The notes under the pieces: model-generated | The model's input: the letters and a program-made list of their open reading frames with translations, nothing else | The model's database searches: none | What the model was told of the DNA's origin: nothing | Assembly (NCBI GenBank): GCA_054600435.1 | Contig: BAAIJX010000077.1 | Span: 1-64,000, forward strand | Direction of reading: 5' to 3' | Origin: Neophaeotheca triangularis | Taxonomy: Eukaryota | Length of the DNA stretch: 64,000 bases | Part shown: piece by piece, positions 54,220-64,000 of the stretch | Layout: every line of letters begins with the position of its first letter | Numbering within the stretch: the first letter of the stretch is position 1 | Translations under genes and position numbers: made by a program

Positions 54220-56195
54220 TCAACCGTTCCAACTCCCAACAGCGCCTAGTGAAGCCCCGAGGCTTGTCGAAAACCCCTTCCCTGGAGTTCGAGAGCTCTT
54301 TCCAATGGTAACAGGAGACGATGCATGGGTAATACTTGCTCGCCTCCCAGGTTCCGGGAGAGGGCGTGTAGAATGGTCGGGCGAGTTTAATAATGGGTTG
54401 CCCGCGCTGGTCTCTTTGCCGTCAGCACTTCCGCGGAAAGATTTCCCGTCACCACAAGCAGGCGCGGAATGCTGCCGGGACACGAGAGCAGAGACTTCAG
54501 AAATGGTTGCATCCCCACGAGGCCCCTTGTTCAACTCTCCTTCCTCCTCGTCCCCGTCCTTAGCCACCTCTTCATCCTCCCCGAAGCCTTTGCCCTCAAT
54601 GAGCCACCAAACAGGCACAGCGGCAGCCACAGCAATCCCAGTCAGCAACCACCAGGGCGCAATAATGTAGCCCTGCTCGACACCCCAAGTGAAAACTGCT
54701 CCGGTGACCGCAGGACCCACAGCTCTGCCAATAGCAGAAGTAGAGACCGCGATGCCATTCAGAGTGCCCAAGACCCTCAAACTGCTCGCAGAGTTCGTCA
54801 ACAAGATTGTCGAACACGGGAAACTGAAGATCGCACAGAAGCCTTTCAGAACGTAGATTACGAAGCAAGTCCATTTGGCTGACTGCTGCGTTGGTAGGAG
54901 TGCTGTGAAAGGTACTAGAAAGTAAGTGATTGGGAAACCGATGGCGCAGACTTTGAGGCAGTTGAGCGATCCGAAGCGGCGCACAAGGGGTGGGAAGAGC
55001 ACGAGTTGCGTTAGCAAGCTGATGATGCCGTAGAGGGTGCTGAGGAAGCCAATCTGGGCTGAGGTCAGACCAAGGCCGCCGGAAAACTGAAAGGCATTGG
55101 TGGAGGAAGCATTGAGGTGGTTTTGGGGATTTGAAGTTGAGTGGAGGCGCGGGTAGTGCATGAAGACTGCGAGGATCTGGTCGCAGACCAGAGTGTGTGC
55201 GGCGAGGAGGGTGTAGACGACGAGGTTGATGACGGATTGCCGGTTGAGAACTTCGCGGTACGAGGGAGCGGGAAGAGAGGGTTTTCGAGTCTTGTGCGCA
55301 ACCATAGTGTCTTCGTCGTCGGAGTAGACTCGCTTGATGAGAGGGTCGGTCTCCCCATCCCCTTGCTTGGCTAGGTCCCGCAGAAGATGTAACAGCTCTC
55401 CTAGCTTAACGGCGTGATGGCTGATGCCACTTGTAATCTTTTTCCCCAGCAAGATTCCGTAGTCTCGGTTATGTTTCTTGCTTTCCAGCGTCTCTTTCAA
55501 GAACAAGACTCCAGTCACTGACCCAATGCCGAAAAAAGCAGCCGAGACGATGTTTGGCAGCGCATAAGGGTACTTTACTAACAATCCACCTTTGCCTCCC
55601 ATCTCTTCTGGCTCGAGTCCCAACGGATTCGCCAAGACGCCTCCAAGTATCGGTCCTAACACGCTGCCTACGTTCCATACCAAAGGCATCACGCTGAAAG
55701 CCCGGGGCTGCAACTCCTTGTATGGCACCATTTCCGCAACAGTCGTCCTTATAATGCCTACGTTGCCTGCACCAGCTCCCATCAGCCCCCTCGCTATCAA
55801 CGCCTGTGTCATGCCTGTGCTAAAGCCAAATAGCAAGCTGCACATCAGTGTCGTTGTCAGTCCCAGTAAGATGGCAGGCTTTCGACCATAGCGATCCGAC
55901 CCTCTGCCCCAGGGTATCCCCATAGCGGCTTGGCTGAGTGAGAAGACGGAGCCGCAGAAGCCTGCATATTTCGGAACGCTCGAGGCCGGGATGGAGAACG
56001 ACTATATCATTTCCGGCAGGTAGGGGAAGATGGAGGTTTGGGCTAAAGGTTCGGCGAAGCGGCAGACGGCTGGATCAATGAAACGGTTAGCATTGATGAT
56101 CTCTGTCGACAGGGCTTATCTCGATTCTCACCCAGAATGGCCAGCTGCTGGTAGGGTAGCTTTCGTTCATGGAGGCTGCTCTCCGAGGTGGCCAT
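54220..56195 (-). pseudogene. MFS transporter (DHA1/TetA-like) with in-frame premature TAG at 56002-56004
   Basis: ATG 56195 (MATSESS..LPYQQLAIL), intron about 56070-56131, then AVCRFAEPLAQTSIFPYLPEMI*SFSIP..; motif A WGRGSDRYGRKP; 567-aa intact remainder. Confidence 0.8.
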
Positions 56196-59100
56196 GATGA
56201 GTATGGATATGAGAGAGGCATAGGTGTAGCAAGGGTGTCCCTCCAACAGCAGGCATTTCAAGTAGCCGAAGTTGTTTGCTATCTATGTACGATAGGGTAC
56301 GGTAGGGTTAGTCACACAGCCTCATGCACAGCCCGCAGTCAGATTGCCAACGAGGTGTTCAAGTAGGTGCAGGAGGTACCTGCCTTCAGGTCTTGTCACT
56401 GTGTAGATGTGGGGTTTATCGTTTGGCGTGGCATGTGATAGGCATATCGGTCCGTTCAAGCCGTTGTGGATCTGGACTGCTGGATCTGGAGATATCGAAC
56501 GACATGCCATTGGATTGTGGTGACTACTTTCTCATGCACTCTTCCTGTGATACCCAAAGCTTCAAGAATAAGACTTGAGTTCCTTTGGATGATATCTAAA
56601 GCAGAGCTTCTCATCTCTTACGTGATATTGTGCAGTCTTCCACGGTGGTGATGACAACCTTTACCGACCTCCATCTACGCAAAGCAACCGCGCGACAGTG
56701 GAACCACTCTCACCCACAGCATCACCATCAACCCTCCAAAATCCACAAAGTGAACTGGGCCCTGGTCTTGGCCTTGAGGCGGAATTACCGCAGGCAGAGC
56801 GATATGATTGACCACGTCATTGTCATTCGTAAGGACCAAATCAATGCAGACTTGGAGCCCGTGGACAGCGGAGTCCATGTCGTAGTAGCTGGATGCGACA
56901 CACGCGTCCCAATTAGCGCCGCTGTCGTAAGACTCCGCGTAGCACCTGTCGTAGCGTTTGTTGTTGCTGCCGATGTTGCCGGGATTCCAGTGAGTTGAGG
57001 AAGTGGGCGGCATCTTGAGCTGTGAGCTGTTAGTTGTGCTCTGGAAGGTCTTGAGAGAAACACTTACTTTCCAAATAGTTTGTGTTGCATATGATGAAGA
57101 GTGTGGTTGGTGGTGAGTTCGAGCACCGACGGCCCGGCGTAAATGGTGCTCAGTCAGCGCACAATCCTCACGTTGAACGCAGCCGCGAATAGCGTTCTCA
57201 CACAGACAACGTTTCGCCTCGTCTAAGACCACAGCAAAGCTTGGTATTCTCTCTTAGAGGCTTAAACATCCACGACATGCTCGCCATGGGAATTGGTGTG
57301 TGTTCTACCGTAGGTATAGCTATGCTGAGAAGGTTCTTGTATCGTCTTCAGTTGCCTGGATATTCGTAAGGCAGCGGGACGTTGTCTGCGAACAAACATC
57401 GGCTCTCGTTACCAAAGATGAGCTCACACTACTATCACGGTGGACATTGATGAAAAGAGATTTGCACTGGTCAATTGTGACTACTGATTTGACGCATCCA
57501 CACTCTGCTCCCTCAACTGTCCCCGCCCATTGCAAGTTGTATTTTCCGTGCTTCATGCGACACCACCCGTCCCAGTATACTGCCTTCTTGCTCACCCAGT
57601 CCATTCATGCGCCTGTGTATCCCGGACGTTACCACTCACTCAAACGGTCATAGCCAGCTCCTCCGCCATGGGCGCTCAATCAAACGAAACGCACAGAAGT
57701 CATCCTGCGTCTGTCCAATTGTGTCTCATGGCAGATGCTTTGAACTCACCTAACGTGCCGAAGTCTGGATCCATCTGCGTGCAGTTGGAGTTGTCGTAGA
57801 TCTGCAAGACCACTATTAGCAAAGAGACACCAAAGGTGCGTTCATTAAAGCAAGAAGGGGGGGAGGGAGAGGGGTCGTAGTCAGACGAAAGATGGTTGGA
57901 TGCCGTCAGCGCGCCATTGGCGCTCAGTATGAAAAGCACTCATTGCTGTCATCACGTAGAAAGAGGGAATGAGGGGAGATGGTTAAGACTCACCACCTGA
58001 TCCTTTGCTGTCGTCGTTCCAAGGAGCTTTCTGCTGCGCTTCGATCGTCTTATCCACAGACGCGACTTTAGCAGGGTAAACCAGTCTAGGCTTCTTGTTG
58101 CGTATGTGTGCGAAGTTGCCGTTTCCTGAGGGTCAGCCCAGTTTTGACCAATCAGAGTTAGCAAGAAGCTCGCAGCTCCGAACGCGGGTCATCCTTGCGG
58201 AACGTAGAAGGACACCGACCTTGCGCATCGATCGGACGATGTCGTTGAGCCCGCCAGACGTCCATATCTTTTCTGGGGTATCCTATGACCTTGCTCTTTC
58301 TGCTTCGTACGGGGAATCGTTAACGCGCGGATGCGTACGTGTGAGTGATGTTGGTGTTTTTGAGCCTTGCGAACACTGCTTGACAGAAAAACTCGATCAA
58401 TCCGAAATTCTGCGTCTTGAGGTAGCTACACCTGTCGAAATGTTTGTTGTCAGCAAAGAACTTTCGACGTCAGTCTGGCAAAAGGACAAGACAGGGCTCG
58501 CATCTCAGACACCGCCCGATATCGCACTTTTCATGCGGATCTCGCGCTTCATTAGAAGCTCAGTCGTTGGGGTTTTGTCATCATCGATAACGCAAAGGGG
58601 GATAGTAAAGGTACTTACAAGTATCTTTGTCTAATGACCATCCTCATTTCCAGAAAAGACTTGCGTGATCTCTGTCCCTCTTGGTCTTGCCGTTACACTG
58701 AAAGAGGTACTTTGGGGTCTGTTGATTTGATCGTCGCGTTGTCATGGGTTGCTAAAATGCTTCAGCAAAATCACGCGCCTTGAAGATGCAAGAGCAATGT
58801 ACCTTGAGTATCCAGACCGCGGAAGTGGAGCCCTGCGAGTTTGGTAGTCTCGTCGGAAGATCGTTGACGTTGCCTCTAAGCGCGGATCCATGGGCGTAGG
58901 GAAAGTGAAAACGGGTTCTGGTGATGGGGCGTGAGTCAGCCTTTGCTCTTCAGGGATGATGGAAGCGAAGGGTTAAGTGCCCTGCTCTTTCTTCCGAAGC
59001 TTCTGCGGTACTGGCAGTTATTCGGAGGCTTTAGGAGCGGATGGATTGTGCACGCTTTCCAGATAGGCGCAGACGTTGCGATATCTTTGGTGGTCTAGAC

Positions 59101-59625
59101 GAGATGTGTTAGCAATGCTGATTTAGTTTGATTCAACAGAAGCTGGCGGCGGCAAGCTAAGCTTTCAGAAACTAACATCTTTTTTATCTCCGTAAGTGCA
59201 TCGCTCATTGCGCTGGCTGTCTGCCCGTAGGTGTTGACGCCGCACTCGATAATTTGTATAATCACAAAGCAGAAAGGGATCAAATGAACAAAGTACACTC
59301 ACTAGGCTTTTTCTTGTCACAATCCAAGCTCGTGAGTCACCGGAAGCTCTCTTGTTTGTAGGAATTGGAAAGGATCGCAGACCATGTCGACGGTTCGTGG
59401 GAAAGGTCATAGCGACGGAAAGATAAGACTGATGGTCGATGGCCCATCCTCAGTCAATCGTGCGGCAGCTCTCTGTGTGACGCGACCGCCCCATCTGTGA
59501 TTTGTACCTTGTTAGCTAGAACGAGAAGGCATGAACAGACCGGAGCTCACCATCGAATTCTTCACTCCACTTTTCTCGGACCAAGGCTGCTCCAGCTGAG
59601 CGGGAGCGATGATCATCTCTGGTGA

Positions 59626-60862
59626 CTTGAGGCCCGCCCACCTCAAGCCTGCGGCAGCCCTTGCAAAGAGCACGTACGATGCTGCCGCCCCACTGGAATC
59701 CTGGAAAAGTCAAGGGCGTTAGTACATCATTGAGCCGTCGGCATGAAAAGAGAACTCACTACGAGTAGGAAGGGGCCCGCCCACCACCATCCATACGACA
59801 GCCCTGGCCCAAAGGACGCAAAAGCTCGCTGTCGCCCCACTGGAATCCCTAGGCAACTGTTAGCTTTCGAACGTTGCTTGTTGGAGGAGACTCACCTCTG
59901 TTGTCACTTATCAGACTGGGAGTCCGTCCCCAAGTGGCTGGGGTCCCGCCCACCCTCAGCCGTGCGGCAGCCCAGAAGCTTTTTGCTGCCGTCCCGCTGT
60001 CTGTCGAAGTGTCAGACTGCTCTTGCTCAGGGGGGGGACACGTACCTATTTCGCAAAGCTGACACACAGATAGTCTGAGGGCCCGCCCTCCCTCAGCCTG
60101 CGGCAGCCCAGAGAACGTTCAGCTGCCGCCCCGCTACCTGTAAAAGTGTCAGAAGCTTTTCGGGGAGGAGACTTATCAGGTTCCTTGAAGTCGACCAGAA
60201 AAGATGGTCTGAGGTCCCGCCCACCCTCAGCCTGCGGCAGCCCAGAAAGCATTCAGCTGCCGCCCCGCTACCTGTGAAAGTGTCAGTAACTGCTTTTCAA
60301 AGGGGAAGCGGACGTACCTGGTATGAGGCAAACGACACACACTTGAATGAGGGCCCGCCCACCCTCATCCTGCGACAGCCCAGAAAGCATTCAGCTGCCG
60401 CCCCGCTACCTGTGAAAATGTCAGCAACTGCTTTCCAAAGGGGAAGCGCACGTACCTGGTTTCAAGAGACGCACACTTGGATGAGGGCCCGCCCACCCTC
60501 ATCCTGCGACAGTCCAGAAAGCCCTTCACTGCCGCCCCGCTCCCTGTAGGAATGTTAGTGCACTCACCTCGCCTGGCTGAGGTCCCACCCTCCCTAGCCC
60601 GCGGCAGTCCATGAAGCCCTCTTCTGCCGCCCCGCACTCACCTCGTCTGGCTAAGGTCCCACCCTCCTTAGCCTGCGGCAGCCCAACTGCTCGACGCTGC
60701 CGCCCCGCTGCCTGTGAAACGTGTCAGCTAAGAGTGCCTCGCTGAGTGAGATTCGGGTGAGAATACTGACTGACTTTGGATGCAGACGAAGCTGCGTTTG
60801 GAAGAGGGCCCGCCCACCCTCAACCATGCGGCAGCCCAGACGCTGAATGCTGCCGCCCCGCT
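59626..60862 (-). repeat. Tandem array of 10 GC-rich double-hairpin modules (mostly about 130-170 bp period) interleaved with intron-like spacers; candidate spliced structured ncRNA or leader
   Basis: Module starts on the + strand at about 59626, 59768, 59936, 60075, 60209, 60347, 60479, 60575, 60649 and 60803. Consensus: CTGAGGG-cccgccca-CCCTCAG-cct-GCGGCAGC-cc(var)-GCTGCCGC-cccgct. Confidence 0.85.
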
Positions 60863-63800
60863 GTTTTCTGTGTGCAGCATGTTAGCGATGACCGAGACAG
60901 CACTGCAGTGTAAGACTTCCCTCATTGGAGCTATCAGCCGCCGTGTGGGCGTTGTGTTGGAACGATGGCGTGATGGGTTGGGAAGTCTGATGAGCGAGGA
61001 AAAATTAGCGAAGAACAGACTGCTCGAAGGGAAGGGAAAAGGGGAGGGTAATGAGCACCTGGGCCTGAGCAGAACTCAGACTTTGTTTGGTAGCCGGTCA
61101 GACTGAAACAATGTTGGCGGGTCGTTCTCGCAAGCGGTGGGGCAAGACTATTGCGCAACGATTAGCGAAGAACGAGTTGTTCGACCAGAAAACGTGGGGG
61201 GGGGATGAGCACCTGGGCTGAGCCAATGGCTCAGCAAGCAAATGGTCAACTTGGTGGGTAGCCTTATGGGGTGCTGATGGGCGGGTGCGACGGCGAGGCT
61301 AGGTGTCTGCATGTAGTTATTGAGTGATCTCGTGGTCAACGTTTGAAGGGAGGGTTGAGTACCTAGGCCATGGAGTGCGAGACATGCCATGACCAGGTGG
61401 GCATATGGTCACTTGAAACGTCGGATGTGGTGAGGTGTTGATGATTGTCGATGCTTATGGGAAGGTATGTTAGTAAGAGTCTATTCAGCAAAGGTATGGA
61501 AGGAAGGTTATGTGAGGATGTGTCAAGAGATGAAGGCATTGGGTGTGTTTGATGTGAGGTGAAGTATATGTCAAGGAAGACGTGATCAATGTCATACCAT
61601 GTGTGGTTGCTGCAATGGTGTGTCGATGGTAGGCGAAGGTGGTATGGTAGAGACAGTTGTGTAAGAGAGTGGAGGTGAGGAAGTTGTCGAATAATGTTGG
61701 TTGTTGGTCGATGTCGAAACTATTTAGAGGAGTGGGAGATACAGGTCAGCCAGCCGAGTTTTGTCAAAAAGCAAGTGGTCTATGCTTTTCGCTACCACTC
61801 CGGTGTGCGTTTGAAAGTGGGACTGTCGAAACCAGTGGGACGTGTTTGCCTTGGCGGCAGCAAGGCGGCGGTATGGTATGGTCTGAAGAGTTGCCGTATA
61901 CGCGTTGGTGTACCCTATATTGCTCATGGATCGACGTGGTCGACCGACATGTTTCTACTGTGTGATATCCATTGGTTTGAACATCATATCCTGTCCCTGA
62001 CAGACACCATTGTTGTGTTTTCCCCATTGGATCGCAAATAAGGGCTTCCCAGCCAGAAGTCTTGTACAGGGGAGGCTGCCTCAGGCTGGGGGGCCTCCCA
62101 GGCCGCAGTGAAGTTCACCAGGATAGTATTATTGTCGGTGGGCAGCAATAATATCGCGCGAGTCTGATCTCCCCTGGAATACTAGGAGATAGACATAAGA
62201 GAACCTCACAAAGGTGCTCTGTTGTAGTTTTGCCGCCAGACGTACTCTTATGCAATACGCTGGCCTGTCTTACTAGAGGTTCCAACACGCAAGAGGAACG
62301 CTTGTCAAACACGCTCTCACTTATTCTCTCGTCTACCAGGGCGCTGATGTTGTGTGTTTGGGTCTTGTGGCCCTCACAAGATCGAGTGTATTGCACATAG
62401 AGCCGTTTGGCAGTACTCTTAACGACTCTCAGTGCGGCGCATAGTCTAGCTAATTGTCGTTGAAACGCGTCCCAACGTGCCCTGGGAAATATGGTACAGG
62501 TAATCAGTCTTTCTGGCGCGCCATGCTGTAACCATCTCGTATGAGGTCCAGAGGCAGAGAGATTTGGCCTTCTATTCGAAGTTGGAACGGTTTCAACCAT
62601 TGAGTACGAATCGGAAAACTGAGGCCCAACTGGCTATGATAGTACCACAAAATGCTGCATCCACCGGCGTTACTGGTGAGAGAAAAGCAATGCCGAACCA
62701 AGAACGTCAAGGTTCCAGACGAGCCGAAACTGGCAAAGCAATGGCACAGTACAGCATGCCATCGCAATGATCCCCCTACGCACTCGCAACATCGACCTAC
62801 CCAACCGCTATCGAACCTTTTTCACTTCGCCGAGACAAGACAGAGACTTTGGTGAAATGCAAGAAACAGCGCGTTTCAGTTCGCCTAGAAAATAGTAACG
62901 ACCGTGCGCAAGGGGCTATTGTTTCCCTACCTGGGCTACATTGATGGAAGAGACGGGCCTAGGGCGACGAGTACCGCATTCGCGACAGGAACTATTCTAT
63001 ACGTGAGCAAGAGGAGTCTACAGGCAAGGCCGGGCATATCGATCACAAACATCCCTGAGAATGGCAACTGGCGCTGCAGTAATGGCTGTTGCGGAAGGCT
63101 GGCAATGTGGCCGATCGTACGGTAGGTTGACGATGCGAGCAGAAGAGCAATGATAAAGAACGGTCACTGAGTGTTGACTAGAAAGACGAGTACATAGCAT
63201 CTAGTTCTTACGGAAGTATCGGGAGCACGCGATGACTTAGAGAAGCACCCGGTAGCATCGTTTGCTAGTTGCTGTATCAGCTTCCAATTCCAAGCCACAG
63301 GGCAGCTCTTTTTGCAGTACCGCAAGCTTGTATCTGACGCGTTCACGAGAGTTATCTGGTGAGATCAGACACAGCCCGTGGCAGACCCTTCGAGCCTTAT
63401 CAACACTGTATCTTTGCCGTGAGCAGAATGCCAAATCTTTCAATAATCTGCTTTCCGCCTTGAACTCTGGTTCACTTGCGCCAGTGCATCAGAAGAGCGA
63501 GCTGTTTTCGGGCTGACGAATCGACATCCTCAACAAACTACCAACAGGCCTCCACCGTTCAATCCATTGGATAGGGACCTCACGATGAGATCTTTTCAGT
63601 CAAGATGCGCTCCTCTGGCTTACACTAATACCTACACAGCTTTTCCCGCGCCGCGATCAACGTACAGGCTGGCCACGCGAGCTAACGATTCCAACCTCTC
63701 GAAACTAGAAGAGTATCTACCCAGTTAACCAACGGGTCTAAGAATTTGGCGGCCATCGAGGTCTTCAAGAGCTTTAGGGTGATTCACAAGGCAAGCGATG

Positions 63801-64000
63801 TCTAAAGAGCTAAGAAAAGCTGGATCAGGATATAAAAACGATGATAGAAGGAAGCTGATTGGATGTAGGCGGATGGTCACAATGGCAGGCAGATAACGGC
63901 AAAGTACTGCAGTGCTGTACTAGACTCGAGTCGAGCGTTTACATTAGCTCTTCTGGCCGGTCGAAATCTCTTCGCTAAGCGACGTCTCATCCGCGATTAG

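Follow-up and report, generated by a model that had tools for sequence, protein, structure and literature searches.

Several long non-coding RNAs (lncRNAs) and decoy RNAs are built from repeated modules, among them the Xist A-repeat, the NORAD units, the roX boxes and bacterial CsrB/RsmZ. To our knowledge, very few fungal lncRNAs have a defined structural logic, and we know of none, and found none in a literature search, that consists of tandem structured modules, one per exon. Here we describe a 1.4-kb tandem array in Neophaeotheca triangularis that could be of this kind. It lies in a 64,000-nucleotide stretch of contig BAAIJX010000077.1 (positions 1 to 64,000, hereafter the window), where 11 double-hairpin modules of ~68 nt span 59429-60862, each with two adjacent GC-rich hairpins. 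It combines repeated structured motifs with non-coding status; a repeat-module scaffold or decoy lncRNA would in addition be transcribed and its motif bound by protein. We consider the array a promising candidate for a structured RNA of a new, modular type.

The explanation we favour, with our confidence in it evenly divided, is that the array is a spliced minus-strand non-coding RNA showing about ten near-identical hairpin motifs as a multivalent binding platform. The ten-fold display of invariant G-tracts on drifting stems is the expected look of such a platform or of a decoy. Transcription, splicing, the ligand and the biological role of the array RNA are what we infer from the letters of the DNA, and they are worded conditionally below.

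Modules, pairing and sequence constraint

Read on the minus strand, each module runs from a G-tail (AGYGGGG) through hairpin A and a linker of 1-3 nt (A, AU or AC) to hairpin B. In hairpin A, an 8-bp stem (GCGGCAGC/GCUGCCGC) closes a loop of 13-25 nt whose sequence is free apart from its YUGG end. Hairpin B has a 7-9-bp stem that varies by compensatory change, closed by a fixed 8-nt loop, W-GGG-Y-GGG. The modules, with their covariance-model (CM) scores, are as follows.

Module 1: 60795-60862, minus strand; G-tail, hairpin A and hairpin B; 78.8 bits; stem B with two U.U mismatches
Module 2: 60644-60709, minus strand; 71.2 bits; stem B GGCUAAGG/CCUUAGCC, G-C changed to A-U
Module 3: 60570-60636, minus strand; 68.1 bits; within predicted intron I2 if the outer donor is used
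Module 4: 60474-60541, minus strand; 84.5 bits; perfect 9-bp stem B GGAUGAGGG/CCCUCAUCC; stem A C-G changed to U-A
Module 5: 60340-60407, minus strand; 85.1 bits
Module 6: 60202-60269, minus strand; 81.6 bits
Module 7: 60068-60135, minus strand; 80.1 bits; loop B AGGGCGGG
Module 8: 59931-59998, minus strand; 76.6 bits; two A.C mismatches on the minus strand
Module 9: 59762-59841, minus strand; 54.6 bits; stem A GCGACAGC/GCUGUCGU (G-C changed to A-U), loop A of 25 nt, weak stem B
Module 10: 59619-59694, minus strand; 72.5 bits; stem B GGCUUGAGG/CCUCAAGUC, loop A of 22 nt
Module 11, degenerate: 59429-59494, minus strand; 49.3 bits; G-tail and stem A recognisable, loop B motif lost

The covariance model, built from the 11 modules and run over either strand of the window, recovers exactly these 11 (49-85 bits, E 7e-12 to 7e-21) and no further module on either strand, the next best match having E 0.65. 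A scan for the loop motif CCCRCCCW on the plus strand places the loops at 59633, 59776, 59945, 60082, 60216, 60354, 60488, 60584, 60658 and 60809, with a degenerate eleventh site at 59443. A strict pattern for the whole module matches five times in the window and never in 100 shuffles, and the module tail CTGCCGCCCCRCT, allowing up to 2 mismatches, matches 17 times (11 within the array) where 3.8 matches are expected. The element is real, far beyond chance, and limited within the window to 59429-60862. A first-pass annotation of this DNA had described ten modules; all ten are found, but the degenerate eleventh at 59429-59494 had been missed. The arms it quoted are present in the sequence: for its stem 1 (our stem B), CTTGAGG/CCTCAAG at 59626, CTGAGGG/CCCTCAG at 60075, GGATGAGGG/CCCTCATCC at 60479 and GGCTAAGG/CCTTAGCC at 60649, and for its stem 2 (our stem A), GCGGCAGC/GCTGCCGC, CGACAGC/GCTGTCG at 59796-59834 and ..CAGT/ACTG.. 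at 60505-60535.

The tandem units measure 74-190 bp. Tandem Repeats Finder describes the central part, 59945-60547, as period 134 with 4.4 copies and 78% matches. The central units are young: 60210-60322 and 60348-60460 share 94% identity. At 60560-60685, a 74-bp tandem duplication with 90% identity (repeat family D8) has copied one module together with the donor GTGAGTGC.

Folded singly on the minus strand (-19.6 to -36.0 kcal/mol), nine of the 11 modules have both hairpins as their minimum-energy structure; in the other two, 59762-59841 and 59429-59494, stem A is kept and the second hairpin is weak or different. RNAalifold, run on a plain, unfitted MAFFT alignment, returns the same two helices with 16 pairs, six of them changed on both sides. 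By pair counting over a 17-pair structure, 89.7% of 185 cells are paired, a value that none of 500 column shuffles reaches. Double changes affect 6 of the 17 pairs (a number reached in 2 of 500 shuffles) and 9 cells (reached in none). When partners are slid by 1-3 columns, just 29-49% of the cells are paired, with 0-4 doubly changed pairs. The hairpins, and the compensatory substitutions that had been claimed for their stems, are therefore real by both pair counting and RNAalifold, with six doubly changed pairs.

These changes are spread over both stems. In stem B, the outer pair goes from C-G to A-U in 60340-60407 and 60474-60541, and a G-C pair becomes A-U in 60644-60709, whose sister copy 60570-60636 has instead lost the matching stem B base; 59619-59694 has gained an extra U-A pair. 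In stem A, C-G becomes U-A in 60474-60541 and G-C becomes A-U in 59762-59841, with G.U at that pair in two other copies. Intermediates occur at the same pairs, columns 10-44 showing G-C, G.U and A-U.

Pairing is one part of the constraint. We calculated pairwise identities among the ten good modules and again among seven old unit lineages, each with one representative and the young duplicates removed.

5' tail: 0.91 (ten modules), 0.92 (seven lineages)
Stem A: 0.90 and 0.87 for its two arms (ten modules), 0.88 (seven lineages)
Loop A, 5' part: 0.40 (ten modules), 0.32 (seven lineages)
Loop A, last 4 nt (YUGG, minus strand): 0.83 (ten modules), 0.81 (seven lineages)
Loop B: 0.90 (ten modules), 0.90 (seven lineages)
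Stem B: 0.81 and 0.61 for its two arms (ten modules), 0.66 (seven lineages)
3' flank: 0.44 (ten modules), 0.45 (seven lineages)

Restriction to the seven old lineages barely shifts the values. In the same lineages, the interiors of the predicted introns described below have an identity of 0.47, indistinguishable from shuffles (0.43 +/- 0.07). Since intron interiors and the 5' part of loop A are saturated while tail, stem A and loop B stay at ~90%, specific blocks, both paired and unpaired, are conserved. In loop B, read on the minus strand, only the spacers of GGG-N-GGG-N-GGG vary, at two positions, and the G-runs are unchanging. Over most of its length the module keeps its primary sequence, and not its pairing alone.

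These figures modify two earlier statements. The loops of stem 2 had been said to vary freely, which applies to their 5' part but not to their last 4 nt, which are 83% identical. Selection had been placed on secondary structure, but it acts at least equally on sequence, the G-tail, stem A and the G-tract loop being ~90% identical. The earlier view that this is not plain satellite drift agrees with conservation that is specific to position. Overall, the original observation is confirmed and extended, and its interpretation is partly supported.

Predicted introns and coding potential

Between the modules, on the minus strand, lie eight full sets of fungal splice signals (GTRNGY..CTRAC..YAG, 45-98 nt). 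The predicted introns measure 45-63 nt, plus one of 98 nt. Their donors are GTACGT (three times), GTGAGT (three times), GTGAGC and GTCAGT, and the branch point CTRAC has its A 9-17 nt before the YAG acceptor.

I1, predicted intron: 60712-60774, minus strand; 63 nt, GTCAGT..GCTGACA..CAG
I2, predicted intron: 60544-60641, minus strand; 98 nt, GTGAGT..ACTAACA..CAG; encloses module 3
I3, predicted intron: 60410-60455, minus strand; 46 nt, GTACGT..GCTGACA..CAG
I4, predicted intron: 60272-60317, minus strand; 46 nt, GTACGT..ACTGACA..CAG
Intron relic: 60138-60179, minus strand; branch point CTGAC and acceptor CAG kept, donor ATAAGT instead of GT....
I6, predicted intron: 60001-60045, minus strand; 45 nt, GTACGT..TCTGACA..CAG
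I7, predicted intron: 59849-59895, minus strand; 47 nt, GTGAGT..GCTAACA..TAG
I8, predicted intron: 59701-59759, minus strand; 59 nt, GTGAGT..ACTAAC..CAG
I9, predicted intron: 59495-59550, minus strand; 56 nt, GTGAGC..GCTAACA..CAG

Within 59400-60900, a strict intron pattern finds seven distinct acceptor sites on the minus strand and has no match on the plus strand. The module always starts 2-9 nt past the acceptor. When whole units are aligned, the module is conserved, spacers and intron interiors are unalignable, and the CT.AC and AG columns are nearly invariant. The eight canonical introns predicted between the modules thus point to the minus strand and suggest that the repeat unit is an exon-intron unit. 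The modules had originally been read on the plus strand, a choice at odds with these introns, which are the only strand evidence we have. In I2, two donors compete and module 3 lies inside the longer intron because of the 74-bp duplication; the inner donor would leave an intron of 24 nt, which is too short. We dropped an alternative donor, GTGGGC within loop B, which would give 47-nt exons that are still out of frame and which is missing from module 7.

The predicted exons measure 70, 88, 92, 226, 105, 89 and 150 nt, and no frame is open after predicted splicing, with stops throughout the array in all three frames. The loop A lengths (22, 25, 13, 14, 14, 14, 14, 16, 13 and 13 nt) differ by amounts that are not multiples of three. 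Loop indels that do not come in threes, together with stops in every spliced frame, exclude protein coding, in agreement with the first-pass annotation. A 156-aa open reading frame (ORF) on the plus strand (60079-60549) and a 90-aa ORF on the minus strand (60365-60637) have no relative among 5.8 billion proteins. Scoring of ORFs by codon usage was not discriminating, as antisense frames of real genes scored high too.

In the minimum-energy fold of the 1008-nt predicted spliced RNA, eight of ten modules retain an intact stem A, with 7-8 of its 8 pairs, and stem B keeps at least 6 of 9 pairs in six of ten. In this model, most local hairpins persist in the whole-transcript fold.

Contigs of two sequencing runs cover the array: X2, from a strain ~97% identical, and X3, an air metagenome. 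X2 retains the array, and predicted introns contain all three of its indels there (60013, 60033 and 60716); X3 has three in predicted introns, besides two in module 3, which is embedded in such an intron. I1 carries a 2-nt insertion in both X2 and X3, 5 nt from the acceptor, and I6 takes in all the X2 and X3 indels seen there (60013, 60030/60033). Among the differences listed (40 of 148), 17 X2 substitutions fall in 59429-59918: six in introns, five in loop A, four in spacers, one at 59632, in the stem B pair that closes the loop, and one at 59776, in loop B of the weakest module. Just two of the 17 listed are in the conserved module parts, which make up ~32% of the bases of that stretch, a partial count that is not significant alone. 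There are also G8/G9 homopolymers at 60030-60037 and 61200-61208. Read on the minus strand, the first forms the C8 tract of I6, whose length differs by one base in X2 and X3. The summed depth of X2 contigs is ~300 at 60416-60634, against 60-100 in the flanks, and contigs stop at 60271 and restart at 60634, which suggests that the central units of this related strain differ in number or make-up from those of the window.

In two units, the GT donor of the sister units is replaced by ATAAGT (60171-60176 and 59906-59911, minus strand). The module 8 unit has a new GTGAGT 11 nt downstream of it, and in the module 6 unit ATAAGT is the sole donor-like site left. First-step-only spliceosomal cleavage at these sites is conceivable. 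AUAAGU is the wild-type donor of the telomerase-RNA intron of Aspergillus niger, where it serves spliceosomal 3'-end cleavage (PMC4299874).

Because of these donor-like sites we also considered telomerase RNA. Such an RNA contains a template motif complementary to the telomere repeat. The window has no exact template of the AACCCTAAC type, and the nearest matches with one mismatch, at 58566 and 56301, lie outside the array, so we set this candidate aside.

Competing explanations

Several observations weigh against a spliced structured RNA. Of the 11 modules folded singly, only five (minus strand) or six (plus strand) have a z-score below -2 against dinucleotide shuffles; these modest values arise because GC-rich shuffles fold well too. 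Stem 1 had been described as pairing in the copies, and in most it does, but three modules have uncompensated mismatches: 60795-60862 (U.U twice), 59931-59998 (A.C) and 59762-59841, whose stem B has a bulge and a mismatch. The covariation is measured among paralogues of one array, whose shared ancestry inflates the shuffle statistics, and related sequences can beat column shuffles even without structure. Wobble pairs give no strand: on the minus strand G.U occurs in 9 cells, and A.C, which would be G.U on the plus strand, in 6. The exon-intron architecture is leaky, given one unit (module 6) without a donor and one module (module 3) inside an intron. Finally, X2 contigs break inside the array, with loose ends that carry module variants absent from the window, and the array looks copy-number unstable in the manner of a minisatellite.

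Much of this could also be explained by a functionless minisatellite, transcribed or silent, in which the exon-intron unit of a low-level transcript was expanded by unequal crossing-over. The palindromes would then be kept by processes at the DNA level, such as hairpin-templated or template-switch correction, or short-tract conversion between GC-rich cores, and not by selection on RNA. We think this explanation unlikely, though a serious competitor. It would account for the young central units (94% identity) and the 90% identical 74-bp duplication, for the broken X2 contigs with their uneven depth and extra variants, for double changes that are mirror-image mutations as expected from template switching, and for wobble counts without strand bias. 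However, conversion tracts would have homogenised the 13-25-nt loop A as well, whereas among old units this loop and the intron interiors are saturated between blocks that remain ~90% identical; homogenising gene conversion would not easily leave a free loop of 13-25 nt flanked by fixed arms of 8 nt each. Palindrome correction also leaves unexplained why the unpaired G-tail and loop B are as conserved as the stems, and a minisatellite gives no reason for splice signals to be kept in otherwise randomised introns.

An element acting as DNA is improbable in our view. It could be a cluster of transcription-factor sites (GC-box-like GGGCGG, CGG half-sites, GGCTRA inverted repeats), or a cruciform or G-rich array influencing a neighbouring gene. 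Each module does contain two GGGCGG-type motifs and inverted CGG..CCG and GGCTRA..TYAGCC pairs, and the array sits in an 8-kb stretch without recognisable genes. These motifs resemble what we take to be fungal factor sites: XlnR-type GGCTAR inverted repeats, CreA SYGGRG (in the tail) and Zn2Cys6 CGG pairs. Yet the half-sites of stem A are spaced by 13, 14, 16, 22 or 25 nt, which dimeric factors do not tolerate, and those of stem B covary off any consensus (GGCTGA, GGATGA, GGCTAA, GGCTTG); for this variable spacing and covariation of half-sites we set XlnR, CreA and Zn2Cys6 sites aside. Eight oriented sets of intron signals would be left unexplained. As for a G-rich structure, G4Hunter-type scores (25 nt) stay below 1.5 across the array, and for only two of the 11 modules does ViennaRNA, run with quadruplex energies, favour a quadruplex; we reject the G-quadruplex as the main fold on the same figures.

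That the array is the remnant of a protein-coding gene made of repeated mini-exons, or that it derives from a transposon, is very improbable: the exon-intron organisation is gene-like and one frame of several modules reads GSGAAAECFLGCRR(L/M)RVGG without stops, but exon lengths do not keep the frame, all three spliced frames have stops within the array, loop indels are not in threes and there are no protein relatives, while a transposon is opposed by the lack of terminal repeats, by four nearby scanned ORFs in which no Pfam domain, transposase or other, was found, and by the restriction of the element to one locus in 64 kb.

Searches for known RNA families were negative. Rfam 15 gives no match at gathering thresholds over the whole window, and none at E <=5 in 58500-62000 on both strands, which fits the first-pass annotation, where the unit was not recognised as any known RNA family. 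In H/ACA snoRNAs, which are arranged as hairpin-hinge-hairpin-tail, the hinge carries an ANANNA box, ACA lies 3 nt from the 3' end, and there are pseudouridylation pockets; here the linker has just 1-3 nt, the 7-9-bp stems are without internal pockets and Rfam has no match, so we rejected this class. Self-cleaving ribozymes (hammerhead, twister, HDV-like) were rejected as no Rfam ribozyme matches, a search that by itself hardly excludes pseudoknotted HDV-like folds. The CUGAGG-like stretch differs between copies (AUGAGG, CUAAGG, UUGAGG), whereas a hammerhead core would be CUGAUGA...GAAA. A pattern scan of metagenomes for the module found eight loci with a single match each, on contigs of 60-78% GC, none with an array; we judged these eight matches to be chance. 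Our literature search found no paper describing such a fungal element.

Surroundings, proposed role and known systems

The genes in the window, which include tricalbin, importin-11, an alkaline phosphatase, a TRP channel and an MFS transporter, provide a nuclear context. The stretch without recognisable genes extends over 56000-64000, where we found no terminal inverted or long terminal repeats. The four ORFs scanned for Pfam domains, none of which had one, measure 118-192 aa and lie between 56.7 and 62.6 kb. The minus-strand ORF 56678-57253 has a sole match in the collection of 5.8 billion proteins, the predicted 112-aa protein of the same contig. At the other end of the window, positions 1-70 are nearly pure C over ~70 bases, which is probably an assembly or sequencing artefact at the contig end.

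Directly upstream of the array lies a second, different repeat.

Repeat of ~155 bp: 60975-61300, minus strand; two copies and a partial one; repeat families D10-D12

Its copies consist of a short hairpin (GCTGAGCC..GGCTCAGC at 61217-61235; CTGAG..CTCAG at 61065-61079), followed by CCCAGGTGCTCA and then a GCTAAT..YAG stretch. It has just one 17-nt stretch (D12) in common with the main array. We considered whether its copies are diverged modules and discarded the idea, as the alignment was unconvincing and the covariance model had no match there. The repeat may be the 5' part of the same putative transcript. The sole plus-strand TGGGCGGG of the window also lies here, at 61278-61285, 420 nt upstream of the array, so that a minus-strand RNA would carry one CCCGCCCA, the exact complement of the loop B motif. 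This was noticed post hoc, and the complementarity could be chance.

Returning to the spliced minus-strand RNA, we propose that the array would be the body of a multi-exon non-coding RNA gene that grew through tandem duplication of an exon-plus-intron unit, each exon opening with one ~68-nt module. Removal of the introns would yield an RNA of ~1 kb displaying about ten near-identical motifs. This RNA could serve as a multivalent platform or decoy whose partner, a sequence-specific RNA-binding factor or a C-rich nucleic acid, would read the G-tracts borne on the stems; the identical arms of stem A would also permit pairing between modules. It is tempting to go further and see in it an undescribed class of fungal lncRNA, with about ten exons, one bipartite hairpin motif in each, joined up by splicing and acting as a high-avidity scaffold or sponge for a factor that reads G-tracts. 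We advance this only tentatively and think it somewhat more doubtful than the general proposal. A bolder sub-hypothesis is that the module could alternate between hairpin B and a quadruplex, to which the GGGG tail and GGG-N-GGG-N-GGG would contribute the G-runs, with hairpin A as a long loop.

If expressed, the array would be a compact model for multivalent RNA scaffolds arising through duplication of exon-intron units, and for compensatory evolution that keeps hairpins as loops and introns randomise; its ~68-nt module would provide a bait for the binding factor. If it is a silent minisatellite, it would still show cleanly, in a natural setting, how palindromes are maintained in tandem DNA. 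The locus also illustrates that, with nothing but the sequence, intron signals can tell on which strand a non-coding gene is read and how it is built.

Among described systems, GC-rich minisatellites share with the array tandem units of 74-190 bp, young central copies and signs of copy and variant differences between strains. Unlike them, the array has position-specific constraint, compensatory stem changes and retained splice signals that exceed the expectation from drift. The double-hairpin elements (DHEs) of fungal and protist mitochondria are likewise short GC-rich repeated units with two adjacent hairpins, but they are dispersed, mobile and in mitochondrial DNA, whereas the array is tandem, among nuclear genes and interleaved with predicted spliceosomal introns. 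With nuclear genes and spliceosomal introns as context and all copies in tandem at one locus, we rejected a DHE. Introner-like elements and repeated stwintrons of filamentous fungi also tie a repeated structure-prone sequence to spliceosomal introns. There the conserved intron itself is repeated in many genes, whereas here the introns have diverged, the hairpins are exonic and the copies are in tandem at one locus. An introner-like element was rejected as well, intron interiors being no more alike than shuffles and further copies being absent from the window.

The array also resembles the group of the Xist A-repeat, NORAD, roX and CsrB/RsmZ. Like these, the array repeats in tandem a short GC-rich motif proposed to form one or two hairpins, and it is predicted to show sequence-specific unpaired residues many times on one non-coding RNA for multivalent protein binding. 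Its identical stem arms likewise permit pairing within and between repeats, and for Xist repeat A pairing between modules is debated. The array differs from this group in being fungal and in having no relation to it by sequence or Rfam, and each of its modules has a predicted exon to itself, so that a predicted spliceosomal intron stands where those RNAs have a U-rich linker. The lncRNA tentatively proposed above would be, by analogy, a fungal functional counterpart of Xist repeat A or NORAD.

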